From a virus (lineage: Duplodnaviria; Heunggongvirae; Uroviricota; Caudoviricetes), in the IMG/VR virus record IMGVR_UViG_2778261203_000002: DNA of 8,915 nt; one strand, given 5' to 3'. The notes beneath the pieces are model-generated. The model worked only from the letters and a program-made list of their open reading frames with translations. It did no database searches and was not told where the DNA came from. The translations under genes were made by a program, and so were the position numbers. This document shows, in pieces, positions 3,049-8,803 of the stretch (positions within the stretch are counted from its first letter, which is position 1; the number at the start of each line of letters is the position of its first letter).

Positions 3049-3477
3049 ATGGGTTTTCGTAGCGCATCAATTCTTACGTTGATTATTAGTGGGATTATTA
3101 TCGGGTGCACTGATGCTGTATCGACAAATTATCATGACCGTACATCATATTACTCCGATAAAGCAATAGAGACACAGTATGTGAGTTCATCTGAACGTAC
3201 TTCTGATGTTAGTGAGGATATCCGTCTGTATGCCCATCAAATCAAGAGCGCCATCGAAAAACAGTTCGGGGATGCGAGTAAGTATTCAGGAAAAGAGTGT
3301 ACACTGAGAATGCATATGGCCCCGAATGGCCTTCTACTGGAGGTTAAAAGAGAAAGTGGAGACCTCGATTTATGTCGTGAAGCGATGAATGCGATAAAGA
3401 ATGCTGATATACCTGCCCCCCCTTCGCCGGAAGTATATAAAGTATTTCAAAATGGGGTGCTGGATTTTAAACCCTGA
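3049..3477 (+). CDS. Lipoprotein with C-terminal TolA domain III-like domain
   Basis: 142-aa ORF with a GAGGA RBS. N-terminus MGFRSASILTLIISGIIIGC has a hydrophobic core and a lipobox (IIGC, Cys20 at nt 3106-3108); Thr at +2 predicts outer-membrane sorting. The C-terminal ~85 residues (YAHQIKSAIEKQFGDASKYSGKECTLRMHMAPNGLLLEVKRESGDLDLCREAMNAIKNADIPAPPSPEVYKVFQNGVLDFKP) align along their whole length with my recollection of the E. coli TolA C-terminal domain, including the two Cys residues and the terminal LDFKP. Identity was not computed. Confidence 0.85.
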   Translation: MGFRSASILTLIISGIIIGCTDAVSTNYHDRTSYYSDKAIETQYVSSSERTSDVSEDIRLYAHQIKSAIEKQFGDASKYSGKECTLRMHMAPNGLLLEVKRESGDLDLCREAMNAIKNADIPAPPSPEVYKVFQNGVLDFKP

Positions 3478-3627: not shown

Positions 3628-4023
3628 GTGGGATTAAAGAAAATCGTTATGTTGACTTTTTGGGTCGGTTTTGTTGCGGGATGCACACCTTTACACCCTT
3701 CAGATTGCCACAAAACTACTGCTACAGGTAGTTGCAGTTCAGGACGCTGGGATGATCAGGATGAATGGGGGGCGCAAGCGCGGGGAATCAGAGCTGCAAT
3801 TAATGCCAAACTTGATGAGCCGCATAACTGGAAAGGGAAAAAATGCAGGTTGCATATGGAATTCTCTCAGGATGGCACGGCGTTAAAAATATCTACCAGT
3901 AACGGTGATAAAGCCTATTGCGAAGCGATAAAGTCCGCAGCTCATAAAGCCAAATTTCCGGCCTTCAACAATCCGGAAGTCTACAGAGATTTTCAGAAAT
4001 CTGGCTTTGACATGCGAGGTTAG
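3628..4023 (+). CDS. Lipoprotein, divergent paralogue of the upstream TolA-III-like lipoprotein
   Basis: 131-aa ORF starting at GTG 3628, with GAGGAG 6 nt upstream. Signal peptide MGLKKIVMLTFWVGFVAGC has lipobox VAGC (Cys19, nt 3682-3684) and Thr at +2. The C-terminal region (GKKCRLHMEFSQDGTALKISTSNGDKAYCEAIKSAAHKAKFPAFNNPEVYRDFQ) shares the K-x-C-x-L, D/NG, GD-x-x-x-C and PEVY-x-x-FQ pattern with the upstream paralogue and with TolA domain III. Confidence 0.8.
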   Translation: MGLKKIVMLTFWVGFVAGCTPLHPSDCHKTTATGSCSSGRWDDQDEWGAQARGIRAAINAKLDEPHNWKGKKCRLHMEFSQDGTALKISTSNGDKAYCEAIKSAAHKAKFPAFNNPEVYRDFQKSGFDMRG

Positions 4024-4148
4024 CTCTTCAATTACTATATCTCATTCATAGCAAACTGACAGATTTGATGATGTTCTATATACGAAACCTGTGATGTCAA
4101 GTCTGAGCTAATACAAATAAACATAATATCAGAGAAATACATTTTATT

Positions 4149-4172
4149 AGCTCGCTACGGCGAGCTTTTTAT
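4149..4172 (+). terminator. Rho-independent terminator (7-bp stem AGCTCGC/GCGAGCT, loop TACG, T-run)
   Basis: Perfect inverted repeat followed by TTTTTAT, about 125 bp downstream of the second lipoprotein stop and about 100 bp upstream of the holin start. Confidence 0.7.
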
Positions 4173-4274
4173 ATTGCATCGTCTCCAGCATATATATCAA
4201 TTAAGGCTCTGATTGATGTGTCTGAAAGCCTACACATAATAACTATGCCATCCGTTCCGTGCGGAGGTGAGGCT

Positions 4275-4490
4275 ATGAAATCCATGGACAAAATTTCAAC
4301 AGGCATTGCCTACGGCACCTCCGCAGGCAGTGCTGGCTACTGGTTTTTACAGTTGCTCGATAGAGTAACTCCGTCACAGTGGGCTGCAATCGGTGTGCTG
4401 GGTAGTCTGGTATTTGGCCTGCTGACGTACCTGACAAACCTTTATTTCAAGATTAAAGAAGATAAGCGCAAGGCTGCGAGAGGTGAATAA
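4275..4490 (+). CDS. Phage 21-type class II holin/antiholin (pinholin S21 family), dual-start
   Basis: Translation [71 protein letters not shown] matches phage 21 S as I recall it, with the Met1-Lys2-Ser3-Met4 dual-start motif (antiholin from ATG 4275, holin from ATG 4284). A GGAGGTGA RBS lies at 4264-4271. The track ORF from 4218 is an upstream extension with no support. The TAA stop overlaps the endolysin ATG at 4490. Confidence 0.9.
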
Positions 4491-4987
4491 TGCCTCCATC
4501 ATTACGAAAAGTCGTTGCTGCTGCTATTGGTGGCGGAGCAATTGCTATAGCATCAGTGTTAATCACTGGCCCAAGTGGTAACGATGGTCTGGAAGGTGTC
4601 AGCTACATACCATACAAAGATATTGTTGGTGTATGGACTGTATGTCACGGGCATACAGGAAAAGACATCATGCTCGGTAAAACGTATACCAAAGCAGAAT
4701 GCAAAACACTCTTGAATAAAGACCTTGCCACGGTCGCCAGACAAATTAACCCGTACATCAAAGTCGATATACCGGAAACAACGCGCGGCGCTCTTTACTC
4801 ATTCGTTTACAACGTGGGTGCTGGCAATTTCAGAACATCGACGCTTCTTCGCAAAATAAACCAGGGCGATATCAAAGGCGCATGTGATCAGCTACGTCGC
4901 TGGACATATGCTGGCGGTAAGCAATGGAAAGGTCTCATGACTCGTCGTGAGATTGAGCGTGAAATCTGTTTGTGGGGTCAGCAATGA
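4490..4987 (+). CDS. SAR endolysin (phage 21 R-type lysozyme, glycoside hydrolase family 24)
   Basis: 165-aa ORF. The N-terminal Gly/Ala-rich weakly hydrophobic segment ([20 protein letters not shown]) is typical of a signal-anchor-release domain, followed by a T4-lysozyme-like catalytic region. Near-identical to R21 from memory. Its stop overlaps the Rz start (ATGA at 4984-4987). Confidence 0.92.
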
Positions 4988-5448
4988 ACAGAGTAACCGC
5001 GATTATCTCCGCTCTGGTTATCTGCATCATCGTCTGCCTGTCATGGGCTGTTAATCATTACCGTGATAACGCCATTACCTACAAAGCCCAGCGCGACAAA
5101 AATGCCAGAGAACTGAAGCTGGCGAACGCGGCAATTACTGACATGCAGATGCGTCAGCGTGATGTTGCTGCGCTCGATGCAAAATACACGAAGGAGTTAG
5201 CTGATGCGAAAGCTGAAAATGATGCTCTGCGTGATGATGTTGCCGCTGGTCGTCGTCGGTTGCACATCAAAGCAGTCTGTCAGTCAGTGCGTGAAGCCAC
5301 CACCGCCTCCGGCGTGGATAATGCAGCCTCCTCCCGACTGGCAGACACCGCTGAACGGGATTATTTCACCCTCCGGGAACGACTGGTAATGATGCAGGCC
5401 CAACTTGAAGGTGCTCAGCAATACATAACCGAGCAGTGTTTAAAGTAA
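4984..5448 (+). CDS. Rz inner-membrane spanin (i-spanin)
   Basis: Start taken at ATG 4984 ([55 protein letters not shown]...), which matches lambda-family Rz almost residue for residue from memory: an N-terminal transmembrane helix followed by coiled-coil periplasmic domains. The track ORF from 4972 is an in-frame upstream extension. Confidence 0.9.
5204..5389 (+). CDS. Rz1 outer-membrane lipoprotein spanin (o-spanin), embedded in the +1 frame of Rz
   Basis: 61-aa ORF wholly inside Rz in another frame. It has a lipobox (VVGC) and a proline-rich mature region ([15 protein letters not shown]), matching lambda Rz1 from memory. Confidence 0.85.
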
Positions 5449-5585
5449 AATCTTAACTACAATATGATTCATTTTGATGATTGTTTCATAAGGAACAGTG
5501 AAGTAAGATCTAAGAGGAGTTAAATTTTATACAGTATAATCATAGTATTGCAGCAAGGTGGTTATAATTGAAAGAATATTTAGAT

Positions 5586-7043
5586 ATGAATACATCTCAT
5601 GTAAGAGTTGTTACTCATATGTGTGGGTTCCTGGTTTGGCTCTATAGTCTTTCAATGTTGCCACCAATGGTTGTAGCATTGTTTTATAAAGAAAAAAGCC
5701 TGTTTGTTTTCTTTATAACTTTCGTTATATTTTTTTGCATTGGTGGCGGAGCGTGGTATACAACTAAGAAATCTGGCATTCAATTACGTACCCGTGATGG
5801 GTTTATTATAATTGTAATGTTTTGGATTTTGTTTTCTGTTATTAGTGCATTCCCTTTATGGATTGACTCAGAACTTAATTTAACGTTCATTGATGCTCTG
5901 TTTGAAGGGGTTTCTGGAATAACAACAACAGGAGCAACTGTAATTGATGATGTTAGTTCATTACCTCGGGCATATTTGTACTATCGGTCACAGTTAAATT
6001 TTATAGGTGGTTTAGGAGTTATTGTTCTGGCGGTTGCTGTATTGCCATTATTGGGTATTGGTGGTGCAAAGCTTTATCAGTCAGAAATGCCGGGGCCATT
6101 TAAGGATGACAAACTCACTCCCCGCCTGGCCGATACGTCACGGACACTGTGGATAACTTATTCTTTATTAGGTATTGCTTGTATTGTCTGTTATAGACTT
6201 GCAGGAATGCCTTTGTTTGATGCTATTTGTCACGGGATTTCCACAGTTTCGCTTGGTGGTTTCTCAACTCATAGCGAGAGTATCGGATATTTTAATAACT
6301 ATTTGGTTGAGCTGGTGGCTGGTTCTTTTTCCCTGCTATCGGCTTTCAACTTCACTCTTTGGTATATTGTTATTAGCAGGAAAACGATAAAACCTTTAAT
6401 CAGAGATATTGAACTTCGTTTCTTTCTGTTAATAGCCTTAGGGGTGATCATTGTTACCTCTTTCCAGGTCTGGCATATAGGTATGTATGACTTGCATGGA
6501 AGTTTTATTCATTCGTTTTTTCTTGCCAGCTCCATGCTCACTGATAATGGTTTAGCTACGCAGGATTATGCAAGTTGGCCCACGCACACGATAGTGTTTT
6601 TGCTGTTGTCAAGTTTCTTTGGGGGATGTATAGGTTCAACTTGTGGTGGAATTAAGTCACTTCGATTTCTTATACTTTTCAAACAAAGCAAACACGAGAT
6701 AAATCAGCTTTCTCATCCCAGAGCGTTGTTGAGTGTAAATGTAGGAGGGAAGATAGTTACAGATCGTGTAATGAGGTCTGTATGGAGTTTCTTTTTTCTT
6801 TATACTCTCTTCACGGTGTTTTTTATACTGGTGTTAAATGGTATGGGATATGATTTTCTTACATCATTTGCAACAGTGGCTGCATGTATTAATAATATGG
6901 GATTAGGTTTTGGGGCTACTGCATCGTCATTCGGAGTGCTTAATGACATTGCAAAATGTTTAATGTGCATAGCTATGATTCTTGGTCGCCTTGAAATTTA
7001 TCCTGTTATTATATTGTTTTCAGGTTTTTTTTGGCGCTCCTAA
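5586..7043 (+). CDS. trkG: TrkH/TrkG-family potassium uptake membrane protein (Trk system)
   Basis: Multi-pass hydrophobic protein of about 485 aa from ATG 5586 (MNTSHVRVVTHMCGF...), with repeated Gly-rich selectivity-filter-like segments (GITTTGATV, GIGGAK, SLGGFST, GLGFGA) typical of TrkH/KtrB. The sequence and its position directly after Rz/Rz1 match E. coli trkG of the Rac prophage as I recall it. An alternative TTG start at 5568 has AGGTGG 6 nt upstream. The gene is visibly more AT-rich than the flanking phage genes. Confidence 0.9.
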   Translation: MNTSHVRVVTHMCGFLVWLYSLSMLPPMVVALFYKEKSLFVFFITFVIFFCIGGGAWYTTKKSGIQLRTRDGFIIIVMFWILFSVISAFPLWIDSELNLTFIDALFEGVSGITTTGATVIDDVSSLPRAYLYYRSQLNFIGGLGVIVLAVAVLPLLGIGGAKLYQSEMPGPFKDDKLTPRLADTSRTLWITYSLLGIACIVCYRLAGMPLFDAICHGISTVSLGGFSTHSESIGYFNNYLVELVAGSFSLLSAFNFTLWYIVISRKTIKPLIRDIELRFFLLIALGVIIVTSFQVWHIGMYDLHGSFIHSFFLASSMLTDNGLATQDYASWPTHTIVFLLLSSFFGGCIGSTCGGIKSLRFLILFKQSKHEINQLSHPRALLSVNVGGKIVTDRVMRSVWSFFFLYTLFTVFFILVLNGMGYDFLTSFATVAACINNMGLGFGATASSFGVLNDIAKCLMCIAMILGRLEIYPVIILFSGFFWRS

Positions 7044-7129
7044 TATATGGCTGATTTATAATTGTGAGTTTAATATTATGTTGACTCACTCATTGATCCA
7101 ATACCTAACTTTACCAGCAACACCTCCGT

Positions 7130-7165
7130 CCCCAGTAGCACTGGCTGCTGGGGTGCGTTTTATTC
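7130..7165 (+). terminator. Possible stem-loop/terminator between trkG and the ParB-like gene (CCCCAG, 12-nt loop, CTGGGG, then TGCGTTTTATT)
   Basis: 6-bp GC-rich inverted repeat followed by a T-containing tract, seen directly. The loop is long and the T-run is interrupted, so this is weak. Confidence 0.3.
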
Positions 7166-7180
7166 ATAAAGCAAGGCTGT

Positions 7181-7774
7181 ATGAGCGAGAAATTAAAGAT
7201 AGTCTATCGCCCATTACAAGAATTGTCACCGTATGCGCACAACGCCAGGACGCACAGTACTGAGCAGGTGGCACAACTGGTAGAAAGTATTAAGCAATTC
7301 GGCTGGACTAATCCGGTGCTGATTGACGAAAAGGGCGAAATTATTGCGGGTCACGGTCGTGTTATGGCGGCTGAAATGCTCAAAATGGATTCTGTTCCGG
7401 TCATTGTTCTGTCTGGCCTGACGGATGAGCAGAAAAAGGCGTACCGCCTGGCAGATAATCGCCTGCCGATGAATGCTGGCTGGGATGAAGATCTGTTGCG
7501 GATGGAGCTGTCGGACCTAATCAATGCTGATTTTGATGTCTCCCTGACAGGCTTCATCCCGACAGAAATTGATGAACTGTTGACGGATGTTTTGCCCGGT
7601 ATGATATTCAGATTGCTGGTTATGGGGTTGGCGATAAAAATCAGCAACGCCAGCAGGAATTACTGCGGATTGAACGTGAATATAACAATCAGCGTCTGCA
7701 ACTTGAACGTGACTATGCAGATAAATCCCGTGGGATGTCAAATCATGTTTTTCAGGAGAAAATGCAGGCTCTGA
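7181..7774 (+). CDS. ynaK: ParB-like nuclease-domain protein, probably 3'-disrupted at a deletion junction
   Basis: ATG 7181 with AAGG 4 nt upstream. The N-terminal ~140 aa look like a ParB/sulfiredoxin-type domain, including the GHGRVMAA motif (conserved Gly-x-x-Arg). From about nt 7600 the same DNA also encodes, in another frame, a tape-measure-like coiled coil, so the last ~58 codons of this ORF (LPGMIFRLLVMGLAIKISNASRNY...) are probably not native. The gene symbol is assigned by synteny with trkG in Rac, not by sequence recognition. Confidence 0.6.
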   Translation: MSEKLKIVYRPLQELSPYAHNARTHSTEQVAQLVESIKQFGWTNPVLIDEKGEIIAGHGRVMAAEMLKMDSVPVIVLSGLTDEQKKAYRLADNRLPMNAGWDEDLLRMELSDLINADFDVSLTGFIPTEIDELLTDVLPGMIFRLLVMGLAIKISNASRNYCGLNVNITISVCNLNVTMQINPVGCQIMFFRRKCRL

Positions 7775-8502
7775 ATGATGCTCTGGAACGAGAAAAAGAA
7801 ATTGTCAGACAGAAAAACGAGCAGCTCGATATTCAGGCAGGAGACTGGGTTAGTGGTGCCTCCCAGGGATTCAATAACTGGCTGGATGACACTAAGGATA
7901 TCAGTGAGCAGATAAAATCAACCACGACTCAGATGTTTGATGGAATGACCGATGCGCTGGGTGATTTTGTCACGACAGGCAAGGCAAATTTTCGTTCTTT
8001 CGCTACTTCCGTGATTTCGGATCTTAGTCGAATAGCATTAAAGGCTTCAATTACTGGGATTTTCGACAGCATTAGTAACAGTTCTTCTGGGGGGATTTTA
8101 GGAACTATCGGGAGTGCTATTAGTAAATTTATTCCGAATGCAAAGGGCGGTGTTTATGAGTCTCCGTCATTGAACACGTATTCGAACGGTATTTATGATT
8201 CCCCGCATTTTTTTGCTTTTGCAAGAGGGGCTGGTGTTTTTGGTGAGGCTGGTCCGGAAGCCATTATGCCATTAACACGAACTTCCGATGGTTCTCTTGG
8301 TGTCAGAGCTATTAATAGTAAAAGTGGTAATGGAGGCGGAGATATTACCTATGCCCCTGTATACCAAATCACTATTCAAAATGACGGCCAGAATGGAGAG
8401 ATTGGCCCTCAGGCAATAAAAGCACTTATGGGGATGGTTGATCAGCGGGTGCAGGGCGATCTGTTAAATATGCGACGTGATGGGGGAATGTTAAGTGGCT
8501 AA
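7576..8502 (+). pseudogene. Tail tape-measure protein (lambda gpH-like) C-terminal fragment, 5'-truncated
   Basis: This frame is open from 7576 with no start codon until 7735 and begins mid coiled-coil (DIQIAGYGVGDKNQQRQQELLRIEREYNNQRLQLERDYADKSRG...). It continues with a Gly/Ser-rich C-terminal region and ends directly overlapping a gpM-like gene, reproducing the lambda H-M adjacency. The upstream two-thirds of a tape-measure gene are absent. Confidence 0.65.
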
Positions 8503-8536
8503 TACGGAAGAATTTCACTGGTTACCAGAGGATGGA

Positions 8537-8803
8537 ATGAAAACAGAAAATAAACCATCAATAAAAACTGTAAGATTTGGCGATGGTTATGAGCAACGAA
8601 GTCCAAATGGACTTAATCATTCTCTGCGCGTTTTCACCTGTGATTTCAAAGTTGAGGCGAATGAACGTGATTCATTTGAAAAATTTTTAGCCCGGCATGA
8701 AGGCTATAAATCTTTTTTTTGGCGCCCGCCGGGTATTAACAGAAAAATCAGAGTGGTGTGTCGAACGTGGTCAGCGAGCCGGAGGCGTATACCCATAGTT
8801 TAA
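8537..8803 (+). CDS. Minor tail protein M-like (lambda gpM family), C-terminus possibly altered
   Basis: ATG 8537 with GAGGA upstream (a GTG at 8495 is an alternative start). MKTENKPSIKTVRFGDGYEQRSPNGLNHSLRVFTCDFKVEANERDSFEKFLARHEGYKSFFWRPPGINRKIRVVCRTWSA parallels lambda gpM from memory (VRFGDGY, FLEEHGGWKSFLWTPP, K-V-T-C-A-K-W-S). The last ~9 residues diverge at the point where a tail-fibre-like frame opens. Confidence 0.65.
   Translation: MKTENKPSIKTVRFGDGYEQRSPNGLNHSLRVFTCDFKVEANERDSFEKFLARHEGYKSFFWRPPGINRKIRVVCRTWSASRRRIPIV

Follow-up and report, generated by a model that had tools for sequence, protein, structure and literature searches.

Identity and context of trkG, a potassium transporter gene carried by a partly decayed Rac prophage segment of Escherichia coli

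We analyzed an 8,915-nucleotide stretch of DNA (the window) filed as the tailed-virus record IMGVR_UViG_2778261203_000002. Its gene at 5586-7043 is, with a probability of about 95%, trkG, a cargo ("moron"-type) gene of the lambdoid Rac prophage of Escherichia coli. All residues of its product (485/485) are shared with TrkG of E. coli K-12 (b1363; RefSeq WP_001097895.1), and the same RefSeq protein is annotated in a genome that is 100% identical across window 5300-7300. An earlier note, made from the letters of the window alone, had seen here a TrkH/TrkG-family gene resembling trkG of Rac. The likeness goes further than that, as the gene is trkG itself in the Rac-type order Rz/Rz1 - trkG - ParB-like. 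The K-12 locus, which lies in the cryptic Rac prophage (PMC9898762), has the same protein, a leader with a single base difference (at 5545), Rz1/rzoR on the 5' side, the ParB-like gene ynaK on the 3' side, and 38% G+C, as in the window; the two loci differ only in how the prophage around them has decayed. The trkG of this window is a well-studied, already published gene, and there is no new trkG variant here.

The window protein is a full-length member of the TrkH family. It matches Pfam PF02386 (TrkH) at 484 bits against a cut-off of 27, covering profile positions 3-500 of 502, and TIGR00933 (TrkH family) at 415 bits, above the cut-off of 331. Its score against the NCBIfam TrkH equivalog NF008020 (450 bits) falls far below the cut-off of 866, which indicates that the protein is a paralog, TrkG, and not TrkH. 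The solved TrkH structures of Vibrio parahaemolyticus (PDB 3PJZ and 4J9U) align with residues 7-485 (E = 1e-120), so that the expected alignment with TrkH extends over the full length. The Vibrio protein and TrkG have in common their family, length, four pore loops, and a GGxxGSTxGGxK loop. Counted by hand on the translation, the pore-loop glycines of the window protein are G116 (TTTGAT), G224/G225 (LGGFST), G322 (DNGLAT), and G439 (NNMGLG). The GGCIGSTCGGIK loop can likewise be made out in the sequence and aligns with Vibrio TrkH, and the intramembrane glycine-rich loop FFGGCIGSTCGGIK occupies residues 343-356. All four pore-loop motifs and the glycine-rich loop match their Vibrio counterparts. 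Residue D327, which has been implicated in the Na+ dependence of TrkG, lies five residues past G322, in agreement with PMC9898762.

Enterobacterial TrkH is about 41% identical to TrkG, a figure based on Salmonella trkH matches (41%) and on PMC9898762. Compared with TrkH, K+ uptake by TrkG requires Na+ (half-activation at 2.1 mM), the protein itself also carries Na+, and the gene is repressed by H-NS; TrkG can replace TrkH (PMC9898762). H-NS and StpA dampen the transcription of trkG but do not shut it off, an hns mutant transcribes the gene more strongly, and a reporter in K-12 is expressed from a fragment carrying the trkG promoter (PMC9898762). The influence on host ion homeostasis that the earlier note considered possible has therefore already been shown experimentally, as an effect on K+/Na+ balance, for the identical K-12 protein (PMC9898762).

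Base composition sets trkG apart from its immediate neighbors. The gene has 38.0% G+C and its leader 26.3%, against 51.6% in Rz, 56.5% in Rz1, 47.3% in the remnant of the ParB-like gene, and 44.8% in the window minus 5449-7180. The lowest-G+C stretch of 1458 bp in the whole window (36.8%) begins at 5439. At third codon positions, the G+C fraction (GC3) of trkG is 0.321 (32.1%) compared with 0.452 in the other genes pooled (chi-square p = 4e-7) and 0.52-0.54 in the adjacent genes (p = 9e-6 against Rz and p = 3e-6 against the ParB-like gene; p < 1e-5 for both flanks). Thus, the contrast with the flanks holds up when computed gene by gene, with the caveat that three other window genes have a similarly low GC3, from which trkG does not differ significantly: the gpM-like gene (0.32), the first TolA-like gene (0.36), and the tape-measure fragment (0.38). 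Overall, no gene of the window is more AT-rich than trkG, yet at third codon positions it is not unique. The deviation from the flanking phage genes (38.0% vs 51.6% and 47.3%) is what is expected of a moron.

An alternative to a foreign origin is that the low G+C follows from the composition of a very hydrophobic membrane protein, with its many Phe, Ile, and Leu residues. Second codon positions of trkG are indeed low in G+C (0.40), F, I, and L are abundant in the protein, and some phage genes of the window have an equally low GC3. However, the deficit is largest at third positions (GC3 0.32), which are independent of protein composition, and the non-coding leader is more AT-rich still (26%). 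Furthermore, TrkG relatives in Buttiauxella (68% identity) and Morganella (62% identity) have 51% and 47% G+C, respectively, with GC3 values of 0.51-0.61, and E. coli trkH, 41% identical, stands at 53% G+C compared with 38% for trkG (PMC9898762). Since these relatives have host-like G+C, membrane-protein composition fails to explain the AT-richness of trkG. The GC3 values and the comparison with homologs refute this explanation, and we assign it a negligible probability.

An AT-rich leader precedes the gene. One long open reading frame (ORF) stops at 7043 on the + strand, and public annotation starts it at ATG 5586, giving 485 amino acids; an ORF listing stretches the frame upstream to an in-frame TTG at 5568. 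The Rz stop codon is 5446-5448, and the non-coding leader therefore begins with the next base, 5449. The spacer that had been estimated at about 130 bp measures 137 bp and is as AT-rich as proposed. The features of this segment are as follows.

5449..5585, + strand: trkG leader, 137 bp, 26.3% G+C; presumed promoter and 5' untranslated region
5535..5540, + strand: TATAAT box 1, candidate -10 element; perfect hexamer with no good -35
5555..5561, + strand: AAGGTGG, Shine-Dalgarno-like; six bases before the in-frame TTG 5568
5563..5568, + strand: second TATAAT, whose final T is the first base of the in-frame TTG 5568-5570
5586..7043, + strand: trkG coding sequence, 485 amino acids plus stop; K+-translocating membrane subunit of the Trk system

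TTG 5568 is a possible alternative start, which would prepend six residues (MKEYLD) and give a 491-amino-acid TrkG. The annotated ATG 5586 has no obvious Shine-Dalgarno sequence. The stretch 5555-5568 is kept in a second, E. albertii copy of trkG save for a 1-nt insertion, and the six extra codons are weakly conserved there (KEY to EER). This poor conservation favors ATG 5586 or an unconstrained N-terminus. No Rfam family reaches its gathering threshold within the leader or trkG, and a consensus promoter scan returned 5 sites against 6.4 expected from shuffled sequence, which is no excess.

trkG occupies the same place wherever the Rac context is found. A 2-kb query around trkG has full-length matches in 1,541 of the 5,426 complete E. 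coli genomes searched, and in the genomes with the locus it is always flanked by Rz and the ParB-like gene. Identical or near-identical copies are also found in E. ruysiae, likewise in the Rac context. The order Rz/Rz1 - trkG - ParB-like is common to the window, K-12, strain D9, and ON470595, a near-complete Rac located next to ttcA. The latter reads integrase ... recET ... racR ... Q, holin, lysozyme, Rz, trkG, ParB-like, terminase, portal, capsid, tail; the ParB-like gene thus sits between trkG and terminase in intact Rac. This gene order indicates that the ancestral place of trkG is between the lysis and morphogenesis modules. The earlier note had located the gene there in the window, which is correct for the ancestral phage (ON470595) and not for the window itself, where morphogenesis genes are mostly gone. 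Its placement directly after Rz/Rz1 is confirmed, with Rz and the embedded Rz1 immediately upstream.

In the collection of 50,697 phage records, TrkH-family genes are confined to Rac-type entries. The sole distant "phage" TrkH match (<60% identity) whose flanks we inspected, MT835472.1 ("UNVERIFIED: Bacteriophage sp."; locus L024, 2232-12575), is bacterial DNA, with a trkA-trkH operon amid ABC-transporter, two-component, and hydrolase genes. Two Salmonella "phage" entries with a TrkH match were likewise rejected, as they are whole-genome contigs bearing trkH.

In several respects trkG resembles known morons. The moron concept reportedly came from the comparison of HK97 and HK022, and bor of lambda is a moron downstream of Rz. 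Like lambda bor, trkG lies at the Rz-distal end of the lysis cassette as an additional gene that is not concerned with phage growth. Like other lambdoid morons, it deviates in composition from its flanks and has its own leader, and its expression from the repressed prophage is reported for K-12. Unlike most morons, it is larger (1.46 kb) and lies on the late-gene strand; it also differs from them in that no empty-site sister phage was found for it and that the only terminator-like hairpin lies outside the conserved unit. Similarity to lambda-type Rz genes is lost near window 5438, some 10 nt before the Rz stop codon. A search for direct repeats, inverted repeats, and target-site duplications around trkG yielded only short chance matches.

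A copy of trkG outside Rac defines the limits of the conserved unit. In E. albertii NBRC 107761 (locus L006, 3820-5462), a gene with 93% amino-acid identity and 38.3% G+C lies at another chromosomal site, where it is flanked by copC/copD on one side and by an NleF-like effector gene, a pphA-like gene, and rsmF on the other. Nucleotide homology to this copy is limited to window 5406-7047: the last 43 nt of Rz (5406-5448), the leader, and the coding sequence. Because the E. albertii copy shares the Rz end, Rz and trkG were linked before the two copies diverged. Between E. coli and E. albertii trkG, both at about 38% G+C, the synonymous divergence (dS) is 0.94 and the ratio of nonsynonymous to synonymous divergence (dN/dS) is 0.046.

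The leader is conserved beyond what the coding sequence would predict. Its 5501-5585 portion is 88% identical to E. albertii, and 5530-5569 is 95-100% identical in 20-nt windows, compared with 64.5% identity at third codon positions of trkG. TATAAT box 1 lies inside a block fully conserved with E. albertii. Possibly, although we do not regard this as likely, 5406-7047 is a compact, conserved, and selected cassette found in two unrelated contexts (Rac and the E. albertii islet), and the leader core at 5530-5569, with both TATAAT boxes and the strong Shine-Dalgarno-like AAGGTGG, could be an uncharacterized control element. The core could, for example, provide a promoter and 5' untranslated region for H-NS-sensitive or ion-responsive expression, or could mark a mis-annotated start that yields the 491-amino-acid protein.

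Some observations weigh against reading trkG as an inserted cargo gene with its own promoter and a benefit to the host. A joined query of the Rz end and the ParB-like start, required to match over at least 80% of its length, found no empty site, with Rz abutting the ParB-like gene, in any of the 5,426 E. coli genomes, and no trkG-free relative of the ParB-like region occurs among the 50,697 phage records. Given the missing empty site, the case for an insertion event comes from composition and not from an insertion that was seen. A terminator-like hairpin at 7130-7163 lies outside the conserved unit, as the E. albertii homology stops at 7047. The consensus scan gives only a weak promoter site, at 5439-5468; both perfect TATAAT boxes are without -35 partners and are hence missed by it. 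The function of the window gene is presumed to carry over from the identical K-12 protein. Finally, Na+ entry through TrkG can harm the host (PMC9898762), and a host benefit of trkG in natural settings is putative.

The persistence of trkG might also be explained by a benefit to the phage or by no benefit at all. It could be mainly a phage-fitness gene, with read-through from the late promoter restoring K+ lost on infection or under lysis-timing stress and raising yield, and any benefit to the lysogenic host being secondary. Several features fit this view: in intact Rac, trkG shares the strand of the late genes and is part of their transcription unit, between Rz and the ParB-like gene and terminase; the E. 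coli genomes and the phage records yielded no trkG-free form of this phage backbone; and the last 43 nt of Rz accompany trkG even in E. albertii, which points to an old link with the lysis cassette. Yet the gene is intact where particles are no longer made: K-12, this window, from which 14.5 kb are deleted, and the islet of E. albertii. This argues for host selection. General lytic help should also make TrkH-family genes commoner among phages than the Rac-type entries to which they are confined, and expression of trkG in the repressed lysogen is documented (PMC9898762). We therefore consider a primarily phage-serving role unlikely. Even less can be said for trkG as a neutral hitch-hiker, cargo with no selected function that has not yet decayed. 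In published tests, single trkG mutants grow as wild type, and TrkH is the major system (PMC9898762); trkG is degraded in Shigella flexneri and interrupted by IS1 in strain USML2. The dN/dS of 0.046, at a saturating dS of 0.94, already largely refutes neutrality. Deletions have struck independently on either side of the gene, yet its protein is the same in K-12, strain D9, and this window. The leader core is conserved at 95-100%, compared with 64.5% for third codon positions, and trkH mutants can draw their K+ through TrkG if Na+ is available (PMC9898762). Neutral carriage is thus very improbable, and retention of trkG by host selection is the explanation that we prefer.

The degraded copy of Shigella flexneri SFBU0723 (locus L022, 3983-5432) has 38.1% G+C and 20 stops in one frame across 3983-5431, which fits gene loss in a host-restricted lineage. 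Across 154 genomes, Rac is mosaic and decayed, and trkG and recE are its best-conserved genes (PMC5700373).

Neither of the nearest relatives outside Escherichia is a likely direct donor of trkG. These are full-length TrkH-family genes in Buttiauxella (locus L007, 4001-5449; 68% identity) and Morganella morganii (locus L009, 4001-5452; 62% identity). They lie in ordinary chromosomal settings, with an AI-2E transporter gene and an amidohydrolase gene in one, and pth and ychF in the other. Both were rejected as donors on their host-like G+C (51% and 47%) and chromosomal contexts. An AT-rich intergenic stretch is found just 5' of both genes.

The genes around trkG belong to the late region of a lambdoid prophage, and every one of them is on the + strand. 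They are listed here together with the features that separate them.

576-1175, + strand: DUF1367 gene
1175-1465, + strand: YbcO-type nuclease gene
1462-2004, + strand: DUF1133/Q-like antiterminator gene
3049-3477 and 3628-4023, + strand: two small TolA C-terminal-domain genes
about 4275-4490, + strand: P21-type holin gene
4490-4987, + strand: lysozyme gene
4984..5448, + strand: Rz (i-spanin) gene, Pfam Phage_lysis at 176 bits; directly 5' of the trkG leader
5204-5389, + strand: Rz1 gene, embedded in Rz
7130..7163, + strand: terminator-like hairpin (putative function) with a 10-bp stem, 7 G-C pairs, and then a T-run; 18 nt before the ParB-like gene
7181..7604, + strand: 5' remnant of a ParB/Srx-like gene (ynaK homolog), Pfam ParB_N
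7598..7604, no strand: deletion junction with 7-bp microhomology GGTATGA, fusing the ParB-like remnant to the tape-measure C-terminus
7735-8502, + strand: C-terminal fragment of a lambda-type tape-measure protein gene
8495-8803, + strand: gpM-like gene

In the annotation of identical genomes, Rz and Rz1 are called "lysis protein"/rzpD and rzoD, respectively. The hairpin was also picked up by a pattern scan, and the RNA fold of 7044-7180 has a predicted energy of -35.8 kcal/mol (z = -2.2).

The window represents a decay state of Rac that is different from that of K-12. The DUF1367, YbcO, and Q-like genes, both TolA C-terminal-domain genes, holin, lysozyme, and the full Rz are kept in the window and lost from K-12, where the loss spans the ydaW remnant to the end of Rz. 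On the downstream side, the ParB-like gene is full length (792 nt) in strain D9 and ON470595, and homology of the remnant to both stops at 7601. Compared with ON470595, window 7601 runs straight into the C-terminal part of the tape-measure gene, with 14.5 kb missing: the 3' part of the ParB-like gene, terminase, portal, capsid, tail tube, and most of the tape measure. Window 4260-7601 corresponds to locus L003 18675-22016, window 7598-8777 corresponds to L003 36562-37741, and the two half-matches overlap at 7598-7604. The junction is spanned by none of the 5,426 complete E. coli genomes, and this decay variant appears private to the source strain. The downstream deletion of K-12 is different and independent, starting near window 7434. 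The suggestion that trkG lies here in a more complete late region is therefore right for the upstream side, where, unlike in K-12, the DUF1367, YbcO, Q-like, holin, lysozyme, and full Rz/Rz1 genes remain, and wrong for the downstream side, where 14.5 kb of head and tail genes are deleted. K-12, this window, and intact Rac differ in their state of decay but all have an intact trkG, which has thus come undamaged through three or more independent routes of decay.

Other features of the window lie outside the trkG locus. A full-length match to the Rfam small RNA STnc100 at 2752-2938 on the + strand (86.6 bits against a gathering score of 47) sits in the long non-coding stretch from the Q-like gene to the first TolA-like gene. 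The two TolA-like genes encode only the C-terminal domain of TolA, behind a hydrophobic, lipoprotein-like N-terminus, and their products might interfere with TolA-dependent phage or colicin entry. They occupy a cargo slot between Q and holin that in ON470595 holds tRNA-Thr and tRNA-Gly; no tRNA was detected in the window. At its 5' end, window 1-127 matches, in reverse orientation, the DNA on the far side of an IS421 (IS4-like) copy in strain D9, with a 26-bp overlap between this match and the forward one. The start of the window seems to lie within an IS421 copy whose orientation is opposite to that in D9.

The role of trkG in the cell can be outlined from its family and its setting. As a TrkH-family membrane subunit with four pore-loop repeats, TrkG would form the path by which K+ enters the cell. 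TrkH-type transport depends on the TrkA gating ring and the ATP-binding protein SapD/TrkE. The window holds no trkA or sapD, and TrkG would thus rely on the TrkA and SapD/TrkE of the host. The identical K-12 protein serves as a backup of the core TrkH system. While the prophage is repressed, trkG would be transcribed from its own AT-rich leader; during lytic growth, late transcripts anti-terminated by the product of the Q-like gene presumably read through it. We suggest that trkG came into the phage line downstream of Rz from an AT-rich donor, and that host selection then kept it while the surrounding phage genes decayed differently in each strain.

All that the earlier interpretation says of the gene itself was already known; the Rac location, low G+C, H-NS control, and Na+-dependent K+ uptake of trkG had been published. 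Our additions are modest: the limits of the cassette (5406-7047), the lack of a trkG-free backbone in the collections searched, and a leader core conserved above the synonymous rate. The trkG locus remains a clear-cut textbook example of a transporter that was delivered by a phage and is kept by its host under strong purifying selection while the phage decays around it.

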